64,000 nt of DNA, taken from IMG/VR virus record IMGVR_UViG_3300046534_001374, positions 1 through 64,000 of that record. One strand, given 5' to 3'. This DNA comes from a virus. The translations under genes and the position numbers were made by a program. This document shows positions 5,509 to 13,789 of this stretch, in pieces. The notes under the pieces are model-generated. The model saw only the letters and a list, made by a program, of their open reading frames with translations. It ran no database searches and was not told where the DNA came from. Within the stretch, counting starts at the first letter, position 1. The number at the start of each line of letters is the position of its first letter.

Positions 5509-7278
5509 TTATGATGAGTATTCACGGAGATCTTTGATTTTCAAATCAGATTTCCAGTTTAGTTTATTTATAATATTGGTAACAGGAACATTTTGTTCCA
5601 CAACATCAAAAACCTCTTCACTGATTTTTAATTGATCTTCTGGGTCTTCAAACCCACTATTAATTAGGTTTACATTGAACCGAGAAGATTTAAATCCGGT
5701 GGGTCTAAACATATAGAATAGATCGATATCTTCTTTGAAAGAGACGGGGTATTTAGTGGGAAGCTCCATTTTGATTGGGCCCAATATTCTTTTCTTTTGT
5801 GAAAATGTATTAAATGATTTGGATAGAGCTAAATTATCAATAACGCCTTTAAAGAAAACCGGATCTTCGATACCTAGCTCTTCCTTCTTCGCTCTGAAGT
5901 TTCCACTGTCAGCACCAATCAAAGTAGGTCTGCTGTTTTCATCGTCGTAAAATATAACACCGGATTGTTCGAAAGAATCAACAACATTACCGTTTAAAAA
6001 TAATTTACCTTGTCCGTCCAGACCGTTATACAGAAACTTGAAATTATGTGTTCCTGTTAGAGAGGTTACATCGTGTGATAAGGTTCTATATTTCACATTA
6101 CCATCACAAGCATCCACAATAGCGACTCTAGCTACAATCCTAGAATCATTATTGTTTGCACAGTTAACACTGTAGGTTTTTTTGTGTCTGAATGAAGTAA
6201 AATCACCGTTTGCACAAAATCTTACATTCTCAAATGAAGTCTCGGGATATCTTTCAACATCCAACAAATTAGTCAACAAGATACAATCAATAATGTCGGC
6301 ATTGCCATTTAATTTCAGAGCATAGTTGGATTCTTCTAATACAACCCAAGTATATTCTTCATAACCATCTATAGTAAGTTTTCTGGTGAACGATATACTA
6401 ACTCCTTTTTTAGTATTATCGCATGGATCGGTAATACACGGTTTAATGTTATGAAATTCTTTGTTAAATATAACCCTACCCCGTTTATCCATTTTGATAA
6501 GCTTATTCCCTTGGTATACTATCCATATATCATCATTAACATCAATTCCGAAAGTATCCGTTTTAATACTGGCAAAGAAAAACCCATTACCATTCTTATA
6601 GATGGTATTTCCGAATAAGTTATAATGATTGTCTTCGCAATCTGTCAACATAGGCGTTCCTTTATTGGAGTAAAATGATTTTATCTCATCCTGACTAGTG
6701 ATTACAAAATTGGTATGGCCACTTTGACTTAATGCAATAGTAGAAACATATGAACCTGCATTTGTATATTTTAATATGTGATCTTCCGCCAAATTTAGGA
6801 AATATACGTCACCAACGCTATCGATGTTAATGGTAATGATTTCAAACAACTCCCCAACAAGGGTAAATTCTTTTACAAGAATATTATTAGTATCGAATCT
6901 AAAAACTTTATTGTTACCTTGATCGTAATAATACTTGTTACCGAAATGGTCGATGGTTTGTGTCGAAATTTCTATAGGATTTTCTTGATCGGGAAAATCG
7001 CGTTGGGATAATAGTTTACCTTCTTGGTTGAAAAAGGATAAATGGTTATTCCCGCAATCGGTAATCGTCAGGTTCGAAATTTCTTCAAGTCCGTTTTGGT
7101 AGAACACCCCGTAACCTTGGTTATCGAAATTTCCAACAATCTGCGAACTATTGGGCTGATTCCAACTACGAAGTGTCAAATCGAAGTCAATACAAATCGT
7201 ATTGGTTGGATAGAAATCTTCATTGACAGGAAATCTAAGATAATTTCTTCCAGAAAGAATTAGGGTATTATTAGACAT
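5509..7278 (-). CDS. Putative virion protein with beta-propeller-like repeats and LamG-like segments
   Basis: Repeated IDxxGxxY blades; KLFLNG...LIG...FKGVIDNL LamG-like C-terminus. Confidence 0.6.
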   Translation of the reverse strand: MSNNTLILSGRNYLRFPVNEDFYPTNTICIDFDLTLRSWNQPNSSQIVGNFDNQGYGVFYQNGLEEISNLTITDCGNNHLSFFNQEGKLLSQRDFPDQENPIEISTQTIDHFGNKYYYDQGNNKVFRFDTNNILVKEFTLVGELFEIITINIDSVGDVYFLNLAEDHILKYTNAGSYVSTIALSQSGHTNFVITSQDEIKSFYSNKGTPMLTDCEDNHYNLFGNTIYKNGNGFFFASIKTDTFGIDVNDDIWIVYQGNKLIKMDKRGRVIFNKEFHNIKPCITDPCDNTKKGVSISFTRKLTIDGYEEYTWVVLEESNYALKLNGNADIIDCILLTNLLDVERYPETSFENVRFCANGDFTSFRHKKTYSVNCANNNDSRIVARVAIVDACDGNVKYRTLSHDVTSLTGTHNFKFLYNGLDGQGKLFLNGNVVDSFEQSGVIFYDDENSRPTLIGADSGNFRAKKEELGIEDPVFFKGVIDNLALSKSFNTFSQKKRILGPIKMELPTKYPVSFKEDIDLFYMFRPTGFKSSRFNVNLINSGFEDPEDQLKISEEVFDVVEQNVPVTNIINKLNWKSDLKIKDLREYSS

Positions 7279-8990
7279 TATTTAAAATTGATTTGATTAA
7301 GAATATCGTCCTTTACAAATCGAGGAACGAATATACCGGTAAATACATTGGTTGGCGGGGCGCTAGAGATCCTTTCGGGGTATGACGGATTCCATTCATA
7401 CAAACTTAATCCAGAATTTACAATATCGCCATTATATGTTTCGATTCCTCGAACTCCGTCTATGGAAAGTAATTTACTATTAATTTGCGAAACGTCTATT
7501 GTCTGGTTGAATAGTAACGACCTCTCCGCGAAGTATAATTCGATATTGTTGATAACTTCTAGTTTTAAATCTTCCTCACTTCTGTTTGTGTTTGGTGATT
7601 TGGTGATTGTTAGTCCACTACTCTGTAAGTCTGTGAAAAGGATAGAATCTATGGGTGTGGCAATACCAAAATTTATGATAATCGCATCCGATGGGATAAT
7701 CTCGGCAGATAGGGTTTTGGTTTTTTCCATCTTATCCACAATTAATTGCTTTTGGACGTTGGAAATATAATTTCCGTTTTTAGGAATTAGGAATAGGTAT
7801 ACGTTATTAAAATTTACAGAACTAGAGAAGTATATTTGATTAAACAATGCGCGATTTTCTTCGAAGGGTTTATCCAAGCCTAAGTTGGTATAATATTTAA
7901 TGTAGTTTTCAAGATACTCCTCATTTGAGAGTATTAACACATCCGAAACGAAGTGGGCGAAGTTATTCAAAACAAAACTCCGATAATCTTCTCCGGTGAC
8001 CAGCCTGTTTTGGGATTTAAACGTTGAAGGTGCATTTCTTCTGATCTCTGCAACAGTTTCAGGATCTGACTTGGGTGTGGATGTAGATGTGTTTGACCCA
8101 ACAAAAGAAGTCGCAAGATCGTTAAGGTATAGTGATTTGGTTGTATCCACTACATCCAAAAGAATAGAATTGAAACGGGTGGTGTTCAATCTACCTAAAG
8201 GTTCCGATTCGACCGCCCCCAACGCAATAACATCAATATCATTGTTTACCGAAAGATAATAAATCGCAATTTCGGAATTGGCTGGGGGGCTATAACCGTT
8301 AATACCATCGCCGAATGTTATATCATAAGAGCCTCTGTCGTTATAACGAGATTCGAAAGACTTATCACTACCACTAGAAAGGAATAGGCTATCAACCTGC
8401 TCAAATTCTTCCCATTGACCACTAGGTTCTTTAATATAGACATCGACACTATTATGATCGATTTTGTTGTCTCCACGAAAAATAGCATATTTCTGATTCT
8501 TTTCACCAGTAGCGGGAATTATAGGATATTCGACATAAGATCCGCCTCGAAATATTTGATCCTCAAACACCGTAGATTCGTGGGCGAACTCGTTAGTGAA
8601 CGTTAGGTCTCTATCCGTAGAGAACCGCCCCGAAGACGTTTCTATGGAGCTGTAGCGAGGAATAGAGTATGTTATAAAGCTTAGTGTTCTAGATGTAGCA
8701 ATATCCAAGAACATTGAAGACGATTGGTGTCCCACCGGATTATAACCAAGCATTTTAGTTTGGTTAATTAGTGATTCGACGGAATTGGTCTTTGTAAATG
8801 AACTATTAGCCGCAGTCCTATTTAATTGGAACATCAACAGCGAAAAAACCGAAGAAACTGCTTCGGACAAAATAGTTGCAGAAGAACCCCTTTGGGTTAC
8901 ATCGGGAAACTCAGCACTTAATTTTTGTTTTATAAGCCCATCGATGGAGCCTATATTGAATCTCAAATAATCTTGTGGATCGTCAGCCAT
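7278..8990 (-). CDS. Baseplate wedge subunit, T4 gp6-like
   Basis: KMLGYNP, ITFGDGING and ETVAEIRRNAP...SQNRLVTGEDY motifs. Confidence 0.9.
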   Translation of the reverse strand: MADDPQDYLRFNIGSIDGLIKQKLSAEFPDVTQRGSSATILSEAVSSVFSLLMFQLNRTAANSSFTKTNSVESLINQTKMLGYNPVGHQSSSMFLDIATSRTLSFITYSIPRYSSIETSSGRFSTDRDLTFTNEFAHESTVFEDQIFRGGSYVEYPIIPATGEKNQKYAIFRGDNKIDHNSVDVYIKEPSGQWEEFEQVDSLFLSSGSDKSFESRYNDRGSYDITFGDGINGYSPPANSEIAIYYLSVNNDIDVIALGAVESEPLGRLNTTRFNSILLDVVDTTKSLYLNDLATSFVGSNTSTSTPKSDPETVAEIRRNAPSTFKSQNRLVTGEDYRSFVLNNFAHFVSDVLILSNEEYLENYIKYYTNLGLDKPFEENRALFNQIYFSSSVNFNNVYLFLIPKNGNYISNVQKQLIVDKMEKTKTLSAEIIPSDAIIINFGIATPIDSILFTDLQSSGLTITKSPNTNRSEEDLKLEVINNIELYFAERSLLFNQTIDVSQINSKLLSIDGVRGIETYNGDIVNSGLSLYEWNPSYPERISSAPPTNVFTGIFVPRFVKDDILNQINFK

Positions 8991-9036
8991 AAAGTTAATT
9001 ATGGCTGACGTTTAAATTCACAAGAAATTTAATGGA

Positions 9037-9154
9037 TTAGAACAAGACGTGGGAGGACGACGATCTACCGCCAGCTTAGTTTGTTTTATATTAGATCGCG
9101 TTTAGATTCCGAACGGAGTTCGGTTTAGAACGCGCCTCCACTTTGACGTTGTCT
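9037..9154 (+). mobile_element. Integron attC site 1
   Basis: R'' TTAGAAC, L'' GTGGGAGG / L' CCTCCAC with one extrahelical G, R' GTTGTCT; central imperfect palindrome. Confidence 0.85.
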
Positions 9155-9170
9155 CAGAAATTAAAAATCT

Positions 9171-9416
9171 ATGTCACTAGAAACAAAAATAGCCGAATTT
9201 TCGGATCTCAAGGAGAGTATTAAAATTTCCAGAAAATCTTTAGGTGCTGCCCAAAAGTCAAAATACAATAACCTAAATCCCAAAGACTTGATGAAAGTAG
9301 TTAAAGCCATCAAATCTAATGAAAAGGAAATTATGGATTTTTATCGTGACTTGGTTTCTCTGGAGAACGAGATTCTTGATCTAATTGATTCTGAACAAGA
9401 TCAGAAAGAAGGTTAG
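9171..9416 (+). CDS. Cassette 1 coiled-coil hypothetical protein
   Basis: 81-aa ORF starting ~20 nt after the attC1 GTT, the usual cassette geometry. Confidence 0.6.
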   Translation: MSLETKIAEFSDLKESIKISRKSLGAAQKSKYNNLNPKDLMKVVKAIKSNEKEIMDFYRDLVSLENEILDLIDSEQDQKEG

Positions 9417-9498
9417 TTCTCTTCAACATATTGTCACACAAATCAATACCTGCTTTTGCAGAAGATCTTATTTCTTTGATTATTGCTTCTTGGCTCAT
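9331..9498 (-). CDS. Cassette 1 convergent small protein (55 aa, MSQEAIIKEI...)
   Basis: Manually translated ORF with upstream TTGACA and TAATTA motifs. Confidence 0.45.
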   Translation of the reverse strand: MSQEAIIKEIRSSAKAGIDLCDNMLKRTNLLSDLVQNQLDQESRSPEKPSHDKNP

Positions 9499-9545
9499 AT
9501 TTTTAATTAGTGGTCACATCAAACTTGTCAACTAAAAACTTGAAG

Positions 9546-9664
9546 AGACAACAAGGCGTGGGAGAGCGACGATCTACCGCTAGCTTAGTTTATGTTTATG
9601 TATTATCGCGTTTAGATTCCGAACGGAGTTCGGTTTAGATCGCGCCTCCACATTGACGTTCGCT
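9546..9664 (+). mobile_element. Integron attC site 2
   Basis: Close copy of attC1; R'' GAGACAAC is the exact reverse complement of GTTGTCTC at the start of cassette 1. Confidence 0.88.
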
Positions 9665-9688
9665 AGGAAACCCCAACCAACTAAACTC

Positions 9689-9829
9689 ATGCCAGAAAAA
9701 CCAAAACTAAAGGAGCGCACTCTTCGTGAGAATCTCGCAATCGTTAAGAAGCAAATACAAGATTTAGAGCAAGAAGATTACACCCCTAAAGAGTGGCTTG
9801 AATTGAATCAAGAACGTAAGTCTCATTAA
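9689..9829 (+). CDS. Cassette 2 small protein (46 aa, MPEKPKLKER...)
   Basis: Manually translated ORF just after attC2, convergent with 9826..10167. Confidence 0.45.
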   Translation: MPEKPKLKERTLRENLAIVKKQIQDLEQEDYTPKEWLELNQERKSH

Positions 9830-10167
9830 GTCGCTAGAGATCGAGAAGAGTAAGTAGCTGTGAATTCATCCACAGTCATCCCTTCTTTAGCAGCTAGATT
9901 CTTAGTGTGTTCATCCATCCATTCTCCGACTTTTTCGAGTTCATAGGAAGCATCAGTTCTAAGTTTATTAGATTCGTCACTCCCGTTGAATAGTGTTTCT
10001 TCGGGGATTGGATTGGTTAAGTTTTCAACCACTTCTAGTCGTTTAACTGCTAATCGGACATTATCTTTAAATGATAGCGAACAAGACGCAGTATCTAACT
10101 CACTACCGCTACCTTGGTTGGTTTCGGTTAAGTCATTAGTTGTTTGTTTATTATTTTTTGTATTCAT
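9826..10167 (-). CDS. Cassette 2 hypothetical protein that starts inside attC3
   Basis: 113-aa ORF; the N-terminal ~30 codons (…ELDTASCS) read through the bottom strand of attC3. Confidence 0.6.
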   Translation of the reverse strand: MNTKNNKQTTNDLTETNQGSGSELDTASCSLSFKDNVRLAVKRLEVVENLTNPIPEETLFNGSDESNKLRTDASYELEKVGEWMDEHTKNLAAKEGMTVDEFTATYSSRSLAT

Positions 10168-10207
10168 ATTGAAATTGGTATTGATTAGATATACTCCATC
10201 GTTTATG
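10076..10207 (+). mobile_element. Integron attC site 3 (divergent)
   Basis: R'' TAGCGAAC complements GTTCGCTA at the start of cassette 2; GCAGTATCTAACTCACTACC pairs with GGTATTGATTAGATATAC; R' GTTTATG. Confidence 0.8.
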
Positions 10208-10215
10208 GATTTAAA

Positions 10216-10632
10216 CTACAACATAGTCGGTTCATCGTCAACAACAAACTTTTCCTTTTTCTTAAAAGATTTGTTGTATGTCATAAAAGTTGACTTCAGT
10301 TGTTCGTTATTGAATTTGGGGTTGCCGTCTGCATCTTTTCGTTTGATAGCCTCTCGGAATATCTTGTCACCACGTTCCAATGAGTTAATCAAAGACTGAT
10401 CAACTTTCTGGAACACCCATTGGTGCAAAGTGGCCGATGGTTCCGTTACGGGGTTGTCATGGATCTCTTTAATTTCGACAACCGCAATCTCATGGTCAAC
10501 CCGAACCAAACCATAATCCTGTGGCTCAAAATCTAAACGAGTTTTATATGTATAGATATTACCGCCACCAAAATCAACAGAAACGGTTTTAATGGTTGGG
10601 TCTAATCTGGATTGAATATAATCAGCACTCAT
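10216..10632 (-). CDS. Hypothetical protein
   Basis: 138-aa ORF downstream of the rII genes. Confidence 0.7.
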   Translation of the reverse strand: MSADYIQSRLDPTIKTVSVDFGGGNIYTYKTRLDFEPQDYGLVRVDHEIAVVEIKEIHDNPVTEPSATLHQWVFQKVDQSLINSLERGDKIFREAIKRKDADGNPKFNNEQLKSTFMTYNKSFKKKEKFVVDDEPTML

Positions 10633-10807
10633 CTAAATCTAGAATATCCCTATCTTCTAAGGAATCAAGTTCTAAATCATCTTCTTCAGTTATATCATCT
10701 ATATCCGAAGCATGGCTCGTATAGCTGCAATCGGAGCAGCCAATTATGCTGCCACTCATCTTCAATGTGGATGAGTGGCAGCAAGGGCATTTGGATAACA
10801 TTAACAT
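10622..10807 (-). CDS. Small zinc-ribbon protein with acidic tail
   Basis: CPCC...CSDC motifs. Confidence 0.55.
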   Translation of the reverse strand: MLMLSKCPCCHSSTLKMSGSIIGCSDCSYTSHASDIDDITEEDDLELDSLEDRDILDLDEC

Positions 10808-10815
10808 ACCGTTAC

Positions 10816-11859
10816 TTATCGGAATCGGATGATCGACTTTCCCGTTGAATTAGCGTTAAATTCAAGAACGAAGTCAACACCATTTGAAGGTAGGTGATTA
10901 ATGATATTCAACACGGTCAGAATCGGTGGAGTCTTAGGTGAGAAGGAGCTTTGGATCTGTTTAAGAGTCACAGATTCCACACCATCCTCGATTTTGTTAT
11001 TAAGGTAACTTTGAACCTTAACTTCATCAGTCTCTCTAATTTCAGCAGTCTCTCTAATTTCAGCACAAGAGTCTTCGACACCGTTGTCTTCAACTTTGAC
11101 TTGTGGCTCGACAATTTCTTCGGAGAAGTTATCAACCACTTCGTATCGACAAACCCGAACTTTCTGACAGTTACAATCATTTGGAACTGAGACAACATCG
11201 CGAGGATCGATCTTACAGATAAGAAGTTTGGAATCATTATACCCGAAACCTTTAGCATAATCCAGTGAACCGACATGCAATCCAGTTGAACAGTGAACCG
11301 AGAGGTTGTCATCAACTTCGTCGCGAGGAACTGCAATAACAGCACCAACCTCGTTCAAGATATGTCCATCATCATCAACTTCACCACTAGTAACAGTGAC
11401 CTTAGTATTTCCGTGGTGTGAATAGCCATTGCCCTTCACGGATTTGTAGGCCAAGAAATGACCATCTTCAGTAATAGGGAGCTGTTTATATGAAAGGAAT
11501 TCGTAAAGCTCGCTAACCGAATTTTCAGATTCATTCTCAAGAAGATTCTCCAAGAAGTTTTTCATTCCGTCCAGATTAGGAAATCCGCCGTCAATTAGGG
11601 CTTCAATAGTCTCAACCAAGACACCGTGCAGTTTTACCCCGTTGAATAAAATCCCTTCATCCTCAAATACCAATCCGCTGGTATCAATCTCTGTCTCTCG
11701 GTGTTTGCGACCGTCTAGGAGAGATAAGAATTTAGCTTCGTCATCCCCGTCAAGGATTTCTTGAATTGGGCCAATATTAATATGGTCATTGGGAACTGCG
11801 TATTGCGTTCCATCCTCTAGCCATACTAGGGTGCGTTCGTTAATATAAATGTTTTTCAT
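10816..11859 (-). CDS. rIIB: rIIB-like protein
   Basis: LYEFL...LPITEDGHFLAYK, CSTGLHVG and IDPRDVVSVP...KVRVCRY motifs; adjacent to rIIA. Confidence 0.9.
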   Translation of the reverse strand: MKNIYINERTLVWLEDGTQYAVPNDHINIGPIQEILDGDDEAKFLSLLDGRKHRETEIDTSGLVFEDEGILFNGVKLHGVLVETIEALIDGGFPNLDGMKNFLENLLENESENSVSELYEFLSYKQLPITEDGHFLAYKSVKGNGYSHHGNTKVTVTSGEVDDDGHILNEVGAVIAVPRDEVDDNLSVHCSTGLHVGSLDYAKGFGYNDSKLLICKIDPRDVVSVPNDCNCQKVRVCRYEVVDNFSEEIVEPQVKVEDNGVEDSCAEIRETAEIRETDEVKVQSYLNNKIEDGVESVTLKQIQSSFSPKTPPILTVLNIINHLPSNGVDFVLEFNANSTGKSIIRFR

Positions 11860-11863
11860 TTTG

Positions 11864-13789
11864 TTATAGTTTTTCGATTGTTTCGATAATTTGCTTCTTC
11901 ACTTTTGGAGGGACTAGAAACTCACAGTATTGTAAGAGTTTACATGCAGCCCCTAGTAGGGTATCCCTGCGGATGAGATCATGCACCTTCTTGGCTTTTT
12001 TGTCAAGATGTATCTCAATCTTTTCGGTAATAAATGCTTGAGCAACTTGAGCCTCCAAGGAAACCCGCTTTCCCTCAAAGAGTTTTTTATCGAAACAGTT
12101 TTGAATAGGCAAAGGCAATGTTGTAAAATAAGTTCCTTTGGAGTTAATTTCGATTTCTTTTTTATAATGGTTGGCGTTGTCCTTGATCCATTTGTCAATA
12201 TGGACGAATCCTTGTTTTTTCGCGAAAGCTTCTGCCCGTTTCGTATCGGCTACAAATACACCGATTCCGCGATAACTCTTATTACGGATTTCTGTATCTG
12301 TTGCCCAAGCAATAAATCCACCAGATGGCAAATCACCATAGGTATCGACCCATCGTTGTTCGGTGAGGTATGAATAATTTTTATTACCAGACAATCTAGC
12401 CCTAAGAGTCCGCTGGCTCGCGTCTCTGACCTGCCGTGGAGCTTTCGGCCAGTCGTAATCGCGAAGATCCAAAACAAGCTCACGGACGCTCTCATCGATC
12501 TCATCAGGAGAACGATTCCCTTTAATAAACAGACATCTCTTTGTCAGAATGTTGAAGGTTTTTTCGAAATGGCAAAGCTTTTTATCCCCGAAAGCTTTTT
12601 CTCCAATGATTACAATATGCTCCCAAATATTATGGTCGTATATGTTTTTACTGTGAGGCACAAGCCGCTTATTTGTAGACCAAGACTTAGACATTTCTTC
12701 GTAGAAACTAGAATTAATTTTCATGAACTCTAGAGGATTATCTAGAACGATATGCTCTTTGATTTTTTTTGGTCTGAACCAACCGTTACCTTGGGGTAGC
12801 TCGCCTTGATCTGAAAGGAAGATATCCAGAGGGGTTGGGTCTGCGGCAAACTCTTTAATAAGATCGTCAATGTATTGGACAATAACCGCTTCGACCTTGT
12901 CCATAAAGATCCTAGTCTTTTGGGTATGTTTAATACTTTCCCGAGAAATCGCCAAATCGATGGAACCAATAGGAACATCAACAATAATTTTAGCGTTGAT
13001 TTGTTTTCGGATCTCGGGGAAATGATAGTAATAACAAACTGGTCCCATTTTTACAGACGCATGGTCCATATACGAGTTTTCATGAATCTTGAACGGAACT
13101 TTATAGCCTTCGACCGTAACTTCGTGCTCGCAAAGTATATCTTTAAATGTCAAATCAACAGACGTCCATTCATCATCAAAATGTTGGAAATCGATATTTG
13201 CAAATGTTGCAACGAAGAAATGCTTTGCAGTTTGAAGAAAATTATGGTAATCACCTTCTTTGATTGGAATTGTGATTTCAATACCAGATGGTTCATCACA
13301 AAAGTCTTCCGAAATCAGGTTAGCGGTAGGGACACTACAACCATCAACATCTTCCAAGATGAAAGCGTAGATACTTTTGACCCCATCATGGATAGATACT
13401 CCAGTGAATGAGTCTGAATAACTGAACGCTGCCGAAGAGCCAATTCCAAAACAACCCGCTTGAGTATTATCATCCCGCTTTCCAGACATTCCAAGTTGAC
13501 CAAAGATTTTGAACATAGGATCTTTGGCAAGACCGAGACCAAAATCCCTGATTCTCAGTTCGGTTTTATCCAAACGAACTTCAACAGGTCGAGTAATTCC
13601 GAGCTTGATATGCTCATCTAGAGCATTGGTGGTGTATTCGCGAATACTTGCTAAAATACTATCTGAGTAAATCCCATCTCGTAGATATCCAGCGATTTGG
13701 TTAACGCTCTCTGGAGCGACGCCCATAGTGTGACGTTCAAATTCTTGTGAACGAACCACAGTGTGATTATTGGAAGGTAGCTTTTGCAT
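11864..13789 (-). CDS. rIIA: rIIA-like protein (GHKL ATPase N-terminus)
   Basis: IYSD...IREYTTNALD, IRDFGLGL and GCFGIGS motifs. Confidence 0.9.
   Translation of the reverse strand: MQKLPSNNHTVVRSQEFERHTMGVAPESVNQIAGYLRDGIYSDSILASIREYTTNALDEHIKLGITRPVEVRLDKTELRIRDFGLGLAKDPMFKIFGQLGMSGKRDDNTQAGCFGIGSSAAFSYSDSFTGVSIHDGVKSIYAFILEDVDGCSVPTANLISEDFCDEPSGIEITIPIKEGDYHNFLQTAKHFFVATFANIDFQHFDDEWTSVDLTFKDILCEHEVTVEGYKVPFKIHENSYMDHASVKMGPVCYYYHFPEIRKQINAKIIVDVPIGSIDLAISRESIKHTQKTRIFMDKVEAVIVQYIDDLIKEFAADPTPLDIFLSDQGELPQGNGWFRPKKIKEHIVLDNPLEFMKINSSFYEEMSKSWSTNKRLVPHSKNIYDHNIWEHIVIIGEKAFGDKKLCHFEKTFNILTKRCLFIKGNRSPDEIDESVRELVLDLRDYDWPKAPRQVRDASQRTLRARLSGNKNYSYLTEQRWVDTYGDLPSGGFIAWATDTEIRNKSYRGIGVFVADTKRAEAFAKKQGFVHIDKWIKDNANHYKKEIEINSKGTYFTTLPLPIQNCFDKKLFEGKRVSLEAQVAQAFITEKIEIHLDKKAKKVHDLIRRDTLLGAACKLLQYCEFLVPPKVKKQIIETIEKL

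Follow-up and report, generated by a model that had tools for sequence, protein, structure and literature searches.

Positions 9037-10207 of the window analysed here (a stretch of 64,000 nucleotides, i.e. the first 64 kb of the 139,595-base virus record IMGVR_UViG_3300046534_001374 of IMG/VR, a record rated 65% complete) are, with a probability that we put at roughly 78%, a genuine integron-type array without integrase, that is, a cluster of attC sites lacking an integron integrase (CALIN), carried by a virulent T4-like phage and with cassettes moved by a bacterial integron integrase (IntI). It is made up of two cassettes, 510 and 543 nt long, and of three hairpin sites of the attC type. An integron-type cassette array devoid of integrase had been proposed in a preliminary description of this DNA, and the proposal is borne out by the geometry of the sites, the complementarity of their R boxes, the score of site 2 under an attC model and the sharing of cassette 1 with other contigs. 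Each cassette is a unit cut and rejoined within the R' box, after its G and ahead of its TT, at the crossover that integron integrases use on the folded minus (bottom) strand; most likely, a bacterial IntI would act in trans on single-stranded phage DNA during infection. The cassette pool of the phage is also that of bacterial-type arrays of the same sample series with a higher guanine-plus-cytosine (GC) content. The elements of the array are the following:

9037-9154 (including the 7-nt R boxes), plus strand: attC site 1 (type 1), the leftmost element, with AAC at 9041-9043 and GTT at 9148-9150, recognised by its sequence and repeat family
9546-9664, plus strand: attC site 2 (type 1), with AAC at 9550-9552 and GTT at 9658-9660, 87-89% identical to site 1
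10076-10207, plus strand: attC site 3 (type 2), 124 nt, the rightmost element, with AAC at 10080-10082 and GTT at 10201-10203
9149-9658, plus strand: cassette 1, 510 nt (TTGTCTC ... GACG), with site 2 as its own attC, delimited by R-box complementarity
9659-10201, plus strand: cassette 2, 543 nt (TTCGCTA ... ATCG), with site 3 as its own attC, delimited by R-box complementarity

The AAC...GTT spans of the three sites, 110 nt (9041-9150), 111 nt (9550-9660) and 124 nt (10080-10203), lie within the 57-141 nt accepted for attC. Sites 1 and 2 are 87-89% identical copies of one 111-nt element; site 3 agrees with them over no more than its first 9 nt and a short internal segment, and is 95% identical to a twin located at 112243-112120 of the genome. 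All three attC-like sites announced earlier are therefore present, but the third represents a second type and not a further copy of the other two. The R' box at 9148 (GTTGTCTC) is the reverse complement of the R'' box at 9545 (GAGACAAC), and the R' box at 9658 (GTTCGCTA) that of the R'' box at 10075 (TAGCGAAC); these motifs, on which the preliminary description had relied, were all recovered in place with their complementarity confirmed, and the five variable R-box positions match at both junctions (5/5 each). Searching the whole record brought to light another five copies of the 111-nt element (minus strand, 114409 to 111569), which belong to a second array (111.5-114.4 kb; 111569-114409) of six sites and five cassettes in the orientation opposite to that of the window array; with the site-3 twin included, R-box complementarity holds at 5/5 of its junctions. 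A half copy of the type-1 site stands alone at 67859-67928 (plus strand); GTTCATAAA comes after its remnant, as it does after the second array's last site. The record thus holds ten sites in all at three loci, i.e. two arrays and the half site.

Taken over the seven junctions of the genome (two in the window, five in the second array), 33 of the 35 variable R-box positions match, a sum of adjacent matches that none of 100,000 permutations reached; non-adjacent pairings average 1.49/5 and the two boxes of one and the same site about 1.5/5. The R-box match is not the work of chance but the footprint of units joined at a fixed point beside GTT. Since each R' is complementary to the next R'', either unit would circularise on excision with a fully paired R box in the attC of the circle, and the excision predicted earlier for units of ~510-540 bp fits the cassettes of 510 and 543 nt.

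For each site the two arms were aligned, and the bottom-strand alignment was folded, with bulge positions counted from the outer R'' end. On the minus strand, the 111-nt sites consist of a 7-nt R box ending in AAC, 6 unpaired nt, a stem, 5 unpaired nt and the GTT box, the stem running as 3 bp, bulge 16, 3 bp, bulge 20, 3 bp, bulge 24 and 7 bp before a long terminal loop. The bulges of sites 1 and 2 fall at 15/16, 20/21 and 24 with 3+3 bp between them, all on the arm opposite AAC and none on the other, positions 20 and 24 both being T; the attC layout calls for extrahelical bases at 16 and 23/24, and optionally at 20. VCR2, a Vibrio cholerae repeat (VCR), has bulges G16, T20 and T24 and a 6-bp stem separating the first bulge from the last (Nivina et al. 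2016, PMC5027507). The minus strand of the window presents the canonical bottom-strand geometry for sites 1 and 2. In site 3 and its twin, the bottom strand has a bulged C at 16 and a bulged G at 24, separated by 7 bp, and site 3 has one mismatch within its L box; the type-2 site is therefore less canonical. The extrahelical G that had been attributed to the L boxes is half right: a bulged base exists, but the G lies on the top strand, and the minus strand, which is the bottom strand of the recombining type, has C or T.

The sites were also scored with a covariance model trained solely on the 15 attC sites of the IntIA-linked integron of Vibrio phage Va_90-11-286_p16 (MK672802), a complete integron described by Qi et al. 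2023, whose sites display the same 16/20/24 layout and the same complementarity of neighbouring boxes. With filters off over the whole window, site 2 was retrieved at full length, on the right strand and in the right register with 23.6 bits (E 1.3e-4), the best unrelated match in the 64 kb reaching 12.7 bits. The five type-1 sites of the second array scored 16.7-21.9 bits, so that six of the seven type-1 sites of the genome lie at 16.7-23.6 bits; a type-1 site in contig L050, from another sample, scored 23.2 bits, and, in the bacterial-type array of contig L074, a GC-rich site related to type 1 scored 18.5 bits. The same model returned no match at E up to 1 on 53 kb of three related phages. 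These scores support the assignment of the type-1 sites as probable attC of the VCR-like structural class. A scan for attC geometry with strictly fixed positions picked up 4 of 9 real sites plus 2 others, against 0-3 in shuffled genomes; being too rigid, it was set aside.

Information on movement comes from the distribution of cassette 1. An exact look-up of its 81-aa product retrieved seven contigs, most of which are the same phage in samples 3300047666, 3300047667 and 3300060907; two of these (L037 and L038) span the array with phage genes on both sides and are 100% identical. The stretch 9148-9658 was also found, 100% identical, in two short contigs from other samples (L040 and L041) with non-phage flanks, the identity with the phage being bounded exactly by the G|TT at 9148 and the final G at 9658. 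Their neighbouring sequences have 45-58% GC, versus 32% for cassette 1 and 38.4% for the phage. In L040, cassette 1 follows a Biotin_lipoyl gene cassette (Pfam, 8.6e-10) whose attC is only distantly like that of the phage, and in L041 and at the start of a third contig, L039, it follows unrelated GC-rich sequence, the join being G|TT in every case. To the right of G 9658, L040 and L041 continue with two different cassettes, each beginning with AT and not TT. In L040, L041 and L039 alike, identity starts at the GTT of 9148 and ends at G 9658, as in a crossover between the G and the TT of R'. The acquisition or shuffling of accessory genes by the phage that had been envisaged is thereby supported, cassette 1 being 100% identical in two non-phage contexts and ending there at G|TT and G|; phage and integrons evidently exchange genes, and the letter-for-letter identity indicates that the exchange was recent. 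Cassette 2 was found in phage context only. Within L040 (1055-1062) and L041 (598-605 and 785-886), the R boxes of some cassettes read ATC...GAT instead of AAC...GTT, altered on both sides, and the attC of cassette 1 ends G|AT in these two contigs. The conserved core of genome insertion sites of IntI has been reported as 5'-GWT-3' (Loot et al., bioRxiv 10.1101/2022.09.11.507474), and the GAT core beside cassette 1 is therefore compatible with IntI. As for the Biotin_lipoyl cassette of L040, a 73% homologue was met in a bacterial chromosome and discarded as not belonging to an attC array.

These junctions bear on two other explanations. One is that reads of an integron were misjoined into the phage contig, or the reverse. 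Contig L039 (18.3 kb), which combines the non-phage left flank seen in L041 (L039 1-124), cassette 1 and 18 kb of phage, does have the appearance of a path taken by the assembler through the 511-nt cassette common to both contexts, and probably is one, a real phage variant being less likely; the 124-nt left flank common to L039 and L041 might be an attI site. The array itself, however, is enclosed by phage genes on both sides at 100% identity in the 139.6-kb record, L037 and L038, the non-phage junctions recur in independent samples, and non-phage and phage junctions have too few bases in common for a k-mer join, so that we find an assembly artefact scarcely credible. The other explanation invokes homologous recombination by the phage between the 87-95% identical 111-nt repeats, with no site-specific enzyme, after the fashion of the promoter early stem-loop (PeSL) elements, in which a sigma-70 promoter with a terminator hairpin is shuffled by homologous recombination (Arbiol et al. 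2010, PMC2839356). A crossover anywhere within two attC copies would give the same circle and the same shortened array, T4-type phages recombine short repeats and make mini-circles (PMC2839356), and the repeats are long and similar enough. Yet such recombination accounts neither for the joining of cassette 1 at G|TT to a distant site (L040) or to sequence other than attC (L041, L039) nor for R boxes matched across two site types, and a repeat of the PeSL type would require a sigma-70 promoter and a terminator that the repeats do not contain: 2 promoter-like sites occur in the region where 3.9 are expected, and no terminator-like hairpin with a T run was found in the repeats. Because the junctions to unrelated flanks fall at exact points, they do not stem from homologous recombination, which we deem improbable as the sole agent, although it may operate in addition to the integrase. 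Together with the attC geometry, these exact junctions to unrelated flanks are the strongest support for the action of an integron integrase.

The second array leads in the same direction. Its first cassette is 100% identical in contigs L069, L070 and L072, where it is embedded in a co-oriented array of five cassettes with heterogeneous attC sites and matched R boxes. L069 is syntenic with L073 (94.5% identity over 566 nt), a 29.8-kb contig whose array ends beside genes of a bacterial chromosome (one of PilM type, one for a DbpA DEAD-box helicase and one for a PQQ repeat protein); this same array recurs in L074 and L075, where a group II intron reverse transcriptase gene sits within it. Therefore, the phage cassettes and their site family belong to a pool that also lives in bacterial chromosomal arrays, because two phage cassettes are identical there and synteny extends to the chromosomal array of L073. 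Both L073 and L074 display the far end of this bacterial array and not its start. The reverse transcriptase (RVT_1 plus GIIM, 552 aa; L074 2870-4813 and L075 299-1957) has a 5' end that appears to abut the GTT of an attC. In L069 (and also in L070 and L072), the downstream site carries an extra TCTAC between spacer and GTT (1838-1862) and the upstream junction reads GA|TT, not G|TT (2335-2345); neither of these two features fits a simple G|TT exchange. No record was found for the membrane-protein cassette of L072.

In L050, the type-1 site lies between an AT-rich cassette and a GC-richer cassette for a 395-aa protein, and its boxes are matched. This was the sole real match in an exact-pattern scan of metagenome contigs for the conserved 3' part of the site; the same pattern gave 27 single matches in genome contigs, in unrelated high-GC genomes and at about chance expectation, and scans of viral contigs gave one chance match and then none. 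The 395-aa protein (L050 908-2095) has no Pfam match, and an R-x4-H motif near its C-terminus, noticed by eye, is of the kind present in HEPN nucleases; it could be a defence gene placed directly after a phage-type attC.

Which enzyme would act on these sites was approached by six-frame family searches of the 139.6 kb, with positive controls in well-known genomes. No match to Phage_integrase (PF00589), IntI (TIGR02249), Y1 transposases or resolvases was obtained in the 139.6-kb record (65% complete), so that the absence of a tyrosine recombinase formerly noted for the window now extends to the whole of this incomplete record. The locus does not qualify as a complete integron (intI plus attI plus the cassette promoter Pc), there being no PF00589 or TIGR02249 match and the array starting with attC; it does qualify as a CALIN, for which at least two neighbouring attC and the lack of a nearby intI suffice, with three sites inside 1.2 kb and no intI match across the record. 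An integron-like device owned by the phage might instead be run by a recombinase that is of an unrecognised kind or whose gene lies in the third of the genome that the record lacks, and a record 65% complete leaves room for such a gene. On the other hand, the sites have the geometry of classical attC substrates of IntI and are retrieved by a model built on Vibrio attC, the same cassettes occupy arrays beside bacterial chromosomal genes and with a group II intron reverse transcriptase, and the 139.6 kb yielded neither a PF00589 nor a TIGR02249 match; we accordingly give a phage-owned recombinase little chance, and favour a bacterial IntI.

The carrier is a virulent T4-like phage. The array is inserted between the baseplate wedge gene and a 138-aa gene adjoining rIIB, and the flanking genes are:

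7278-8990, minus strand: baseplate wedge gene, PHROG 219, E 2.7e-35
10216-13789, minus strand: block of the 138-aa gene, rIIB and rIIA, in an order also found in the relative L063
10816-11859, minus strand: rIIB, PHROG 609, 2.2e-49
11864-13789, minus strand: rIIA, PHROG 612, 2.4e-56

These PHROG matches for rIIA, rIIB and the wedge protein sustain both the T4-like label and the placement at the rII/baseplate junction that had been given to the locus. The R' box of site 3 ends at 10207, at a distance of 8 nt from where the 138-aa gene stops (10216), and the array is antisense to the flanking phage genes, all of which are on the minus strand. No nucleotide match to 8000-11500 was found by blastn among 50,697 deposited phage records, a search for relatives based on rIIB found none, and Rfam gave nothing real over 8900-10400. 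The wedge protein did lead to relatives at 82%, 69%, 64% and 59% identity. In the closest of them, L063 (82%), the order rIIA, rIIB, 60-aa gene, 138-aa gene and wedge gene is that of the window, but the interval between the 138-aa gene and the wedge gene measures 261 bp versus 1225 bp here; L063 and the window cease to be homologous near 9027 on the left side and, on the right side, where the 138-aa gene has its stop codon. L063 and two other relatives were searched with an nhmmer profile of the type-1 site and with the Vibrio model, and neither detected an attC site. Since L063 lacks a site and its homology ends at the array edges, the array is a lineage-specific insert in a variable spot; variation of the locus among relatives, on which its earlier interpretation had been made to depend, is thus documented by a closest relative without array. 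The 261-bp spacer of L063 (7740-8000) was taken by eye for two tRNA genes, on account of T-arm-like stretches; neither ARAGORN nor Rfam finds a tRNA. At the boundaries between the window array and the phage, nothing attG-like could be assigned. A perfect 12-bp hairpin with a 6-nt loop (8981-9010) encloses the start codon of the wedge gene (ATG 8990, minus strand) and is kept in L063 with compensating changes; it could serve for the control of translation or mark the end of plus-strand transcripts.

Each cassette contains a convergent pair of open reading frames (ORFs), 81 aa (plus) with 55 aa (minus) and 46 aa (plus) with 113 aa (minus):

9171-9416, plus strand: 81-aa ORF of cassette 1, starting 21 nt after GTT
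9331-9498, minus strand: 55-aa ORF of cassette 1, co-directional with the flanking phage genes and overlapping the 81-aa ORF by 86 nt
9689-9829, plus strand: 46-aa ORF of cassette 2, recognised by translation and called as a gene on other phage contigs
9826-10167, minus strand: 113-aa ORF of cassette 2, with its start codon and first ~30 codons inside site 3

The plus-strand frames start 21 nt (81 aa) and 29 nt (46 aa) after GTT, as in bacterial cassettes. Family searches of the products of the cassette ORFs assigned none, and the 81-aa product had no homologue but itself among 5.8 billion proteins. Genome-wide, TAATTA/AATTAA are the most enriched hexamers before long phage ORFs (24% versus 1.2% background), the enrichment lying 10-12 nt before the start with a peak 10-11 nt before ATG (in the window, e.g. 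at 9499-9512), and they may be a signal, specific to this group of phages, for late promoters or for translation. AATTAA occurs at -10 of the 55-aa ORF and at -12 of the 81-aa ORF. The N-terminal 32 residues of the 113-aa ORF recur in two otherwise different proteins, P0145 and P0128, the latter at the twin site 112243-112120, and the type-2 attC site would on this evidence double as a shared 5' gene module. Given that the array is antisense to the neighbouring genes, the minus-strand ORFs (55 and 113 aa) are most likely the ones expressed in the phage, the plus-strand ORFs (81 and 46 aa) having the layout of a bacterial integron.

Several observations weigh against an array that is mobilised by a bacterial IntI, and they must be considered together. 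No intI was found next to the bacterial-type arrays, all such contigs ending inside the arrays, and with the record 65% complete the recombinase search covers 139.6 kb only. Under the Vibrio-trained model site 1 was placed at its exact coordinates with 12.5 bits, which is noise level, and site 3 was not detected in the 64-kb window. All three window sites have C at position 16, where G is usual, and some other copies of the genome have T; the attC sites of MK672802, from Vibrio anguillarum, are also variable at this position. The last bulge, normally a conserved T, is T24 in sites 1 and 2 and G24 in site 3. The R' boxes read GTTGTCT, GTTCGCT and GTTTATG, of which the GTT triplet alone fits the RYYYAAC/GTTRRRY consensus; Vibrio attC boxes (e.g. 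GTTATGC) likewise deviate from RRRY, and only the AAC triplet is conserved across all attC sites (Nivina et al. 2016, PMC5027507). Phage contigs of the three samples all carry an identical array, which thus gives no sign of ongoing shuffling in the phage; this array opens with a complete attC and not with a cassette body, an arrangement that would not result from a circle entering a phage GTT in one simple step. Some of these facts could be read as those of a fossil, i.e. an integron fragment that illegitimate or homologous recombination brought into the phage on a single occasion and that has since been carried along inertly, no integrase acting on it there: an array beginning and ending with complete attC sites is what a block cut from a longer array would look like, and both its 100% identity in all phage contigs of three samples and the lack of an integrase in the record would be expected of it. 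A single entry is difficult to reconcile, however, with two arrays in opposite orientation and a half site, ten sites altogether, with cassette bodies of 32-40% GC, which is phage-like, versus 45-58% for the bacterial-type neighbours, with the start-proximal AATTAA of the phage carried by cassette 1, and with two phage cassettes 100% identical in bacterial-type arrays, which makes transfer recent and repeated. Therefore, we regard the fossil as unlikely, though as an alternative that deserves to be kept in mind, and retain cassettes moved by a bacterial IntI as the better account of the locus.

Integrons are the main gene-capture system of bacteria. For the lytic-phage route of cassette transfer, the locus adds natural evidence that the route is used: cassettes with phage-like GC, one of them with a phage-type start motif, are shared letter for letter and cut at the canonical crossover. 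It is tempting to speculate, and we do so tentatively, on a single pool of two-faced cassettes from which the phage and a bacterial chromosomal integron would both draw, each cassette having a plus-strand ORF in integron style and a minus-strand ORF lying behind a phage start signal (cassette 1) or starting within attC (cassette 2); the IntI of the host would move these cassettes into and out of phage DNA as it replicates. If this doubtful but attractive idea were true, the integron would be a reservoir of accessory genes for phages and the phage both a source and a vehicle of cassettes, which bears on where cassettes come from.

Integrase-less attC clusters in virulent phages have been published, with 17 CALINs of which one is in a myovirus of unknown host, and IntI1 recombined five of the six phage attC sites tested (Qi et al. 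2023). The present locus resembles them in having at least two attC sites, small cassettes of unknown function, a lytic phage as carrier and no intI; it differs in its T4-like carrier, in the presence of two arrays and a half site, and in a cassette signature found at every junction. In that study exchange was proposed as a possibility, whereas here two cassettes are 100% identical in bacterial-type arrays of the same sample series, which is direct evidence of it. With the VCR-like attC of Vibrionales, as represented by MK672802, our sites have in common AAC...GTT ends and a length of ~110-130 nt, a spacer of 5 nt beside R'' (AAGGC in certain copies of each set), bulges 16/20/24 on the bottom strand, a long terminal loop and complementary boxes in neighbouring sites. 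Similarity outside this core is low (17-24 bits here versus 88-137 bits for the Vibrio sites), and the spacer on the R' side is 6 nt instead of 5, base 16 is C or T, there is no linked IntI and the type-2 site goes unrecognised. PeSL modules (PMC2839356; Comeau et al. 2014, PMC4122927) are similar in that hairpin repeats flank small ORFans in hyperplastic regions of T4-like genomes and circles are predicted; in contrast, the repeats described here have no sigma-70 promoter, show attC geometry and are joined to unrelated flanks at a fixed G|TT. The attG route (Loot et al., bioRxiv 10.1101/2022.09.11.507474) offers entry into DNA without attI, and its GWT core fits the GAT cores of L040 and L041, but a single insertion would put a cassette body, and not a complete attC, at the left end. 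What is new beyond the published kind is a T4-like carrier with several arrays, a fully preserved cassette signature and natural evidence of exchange.

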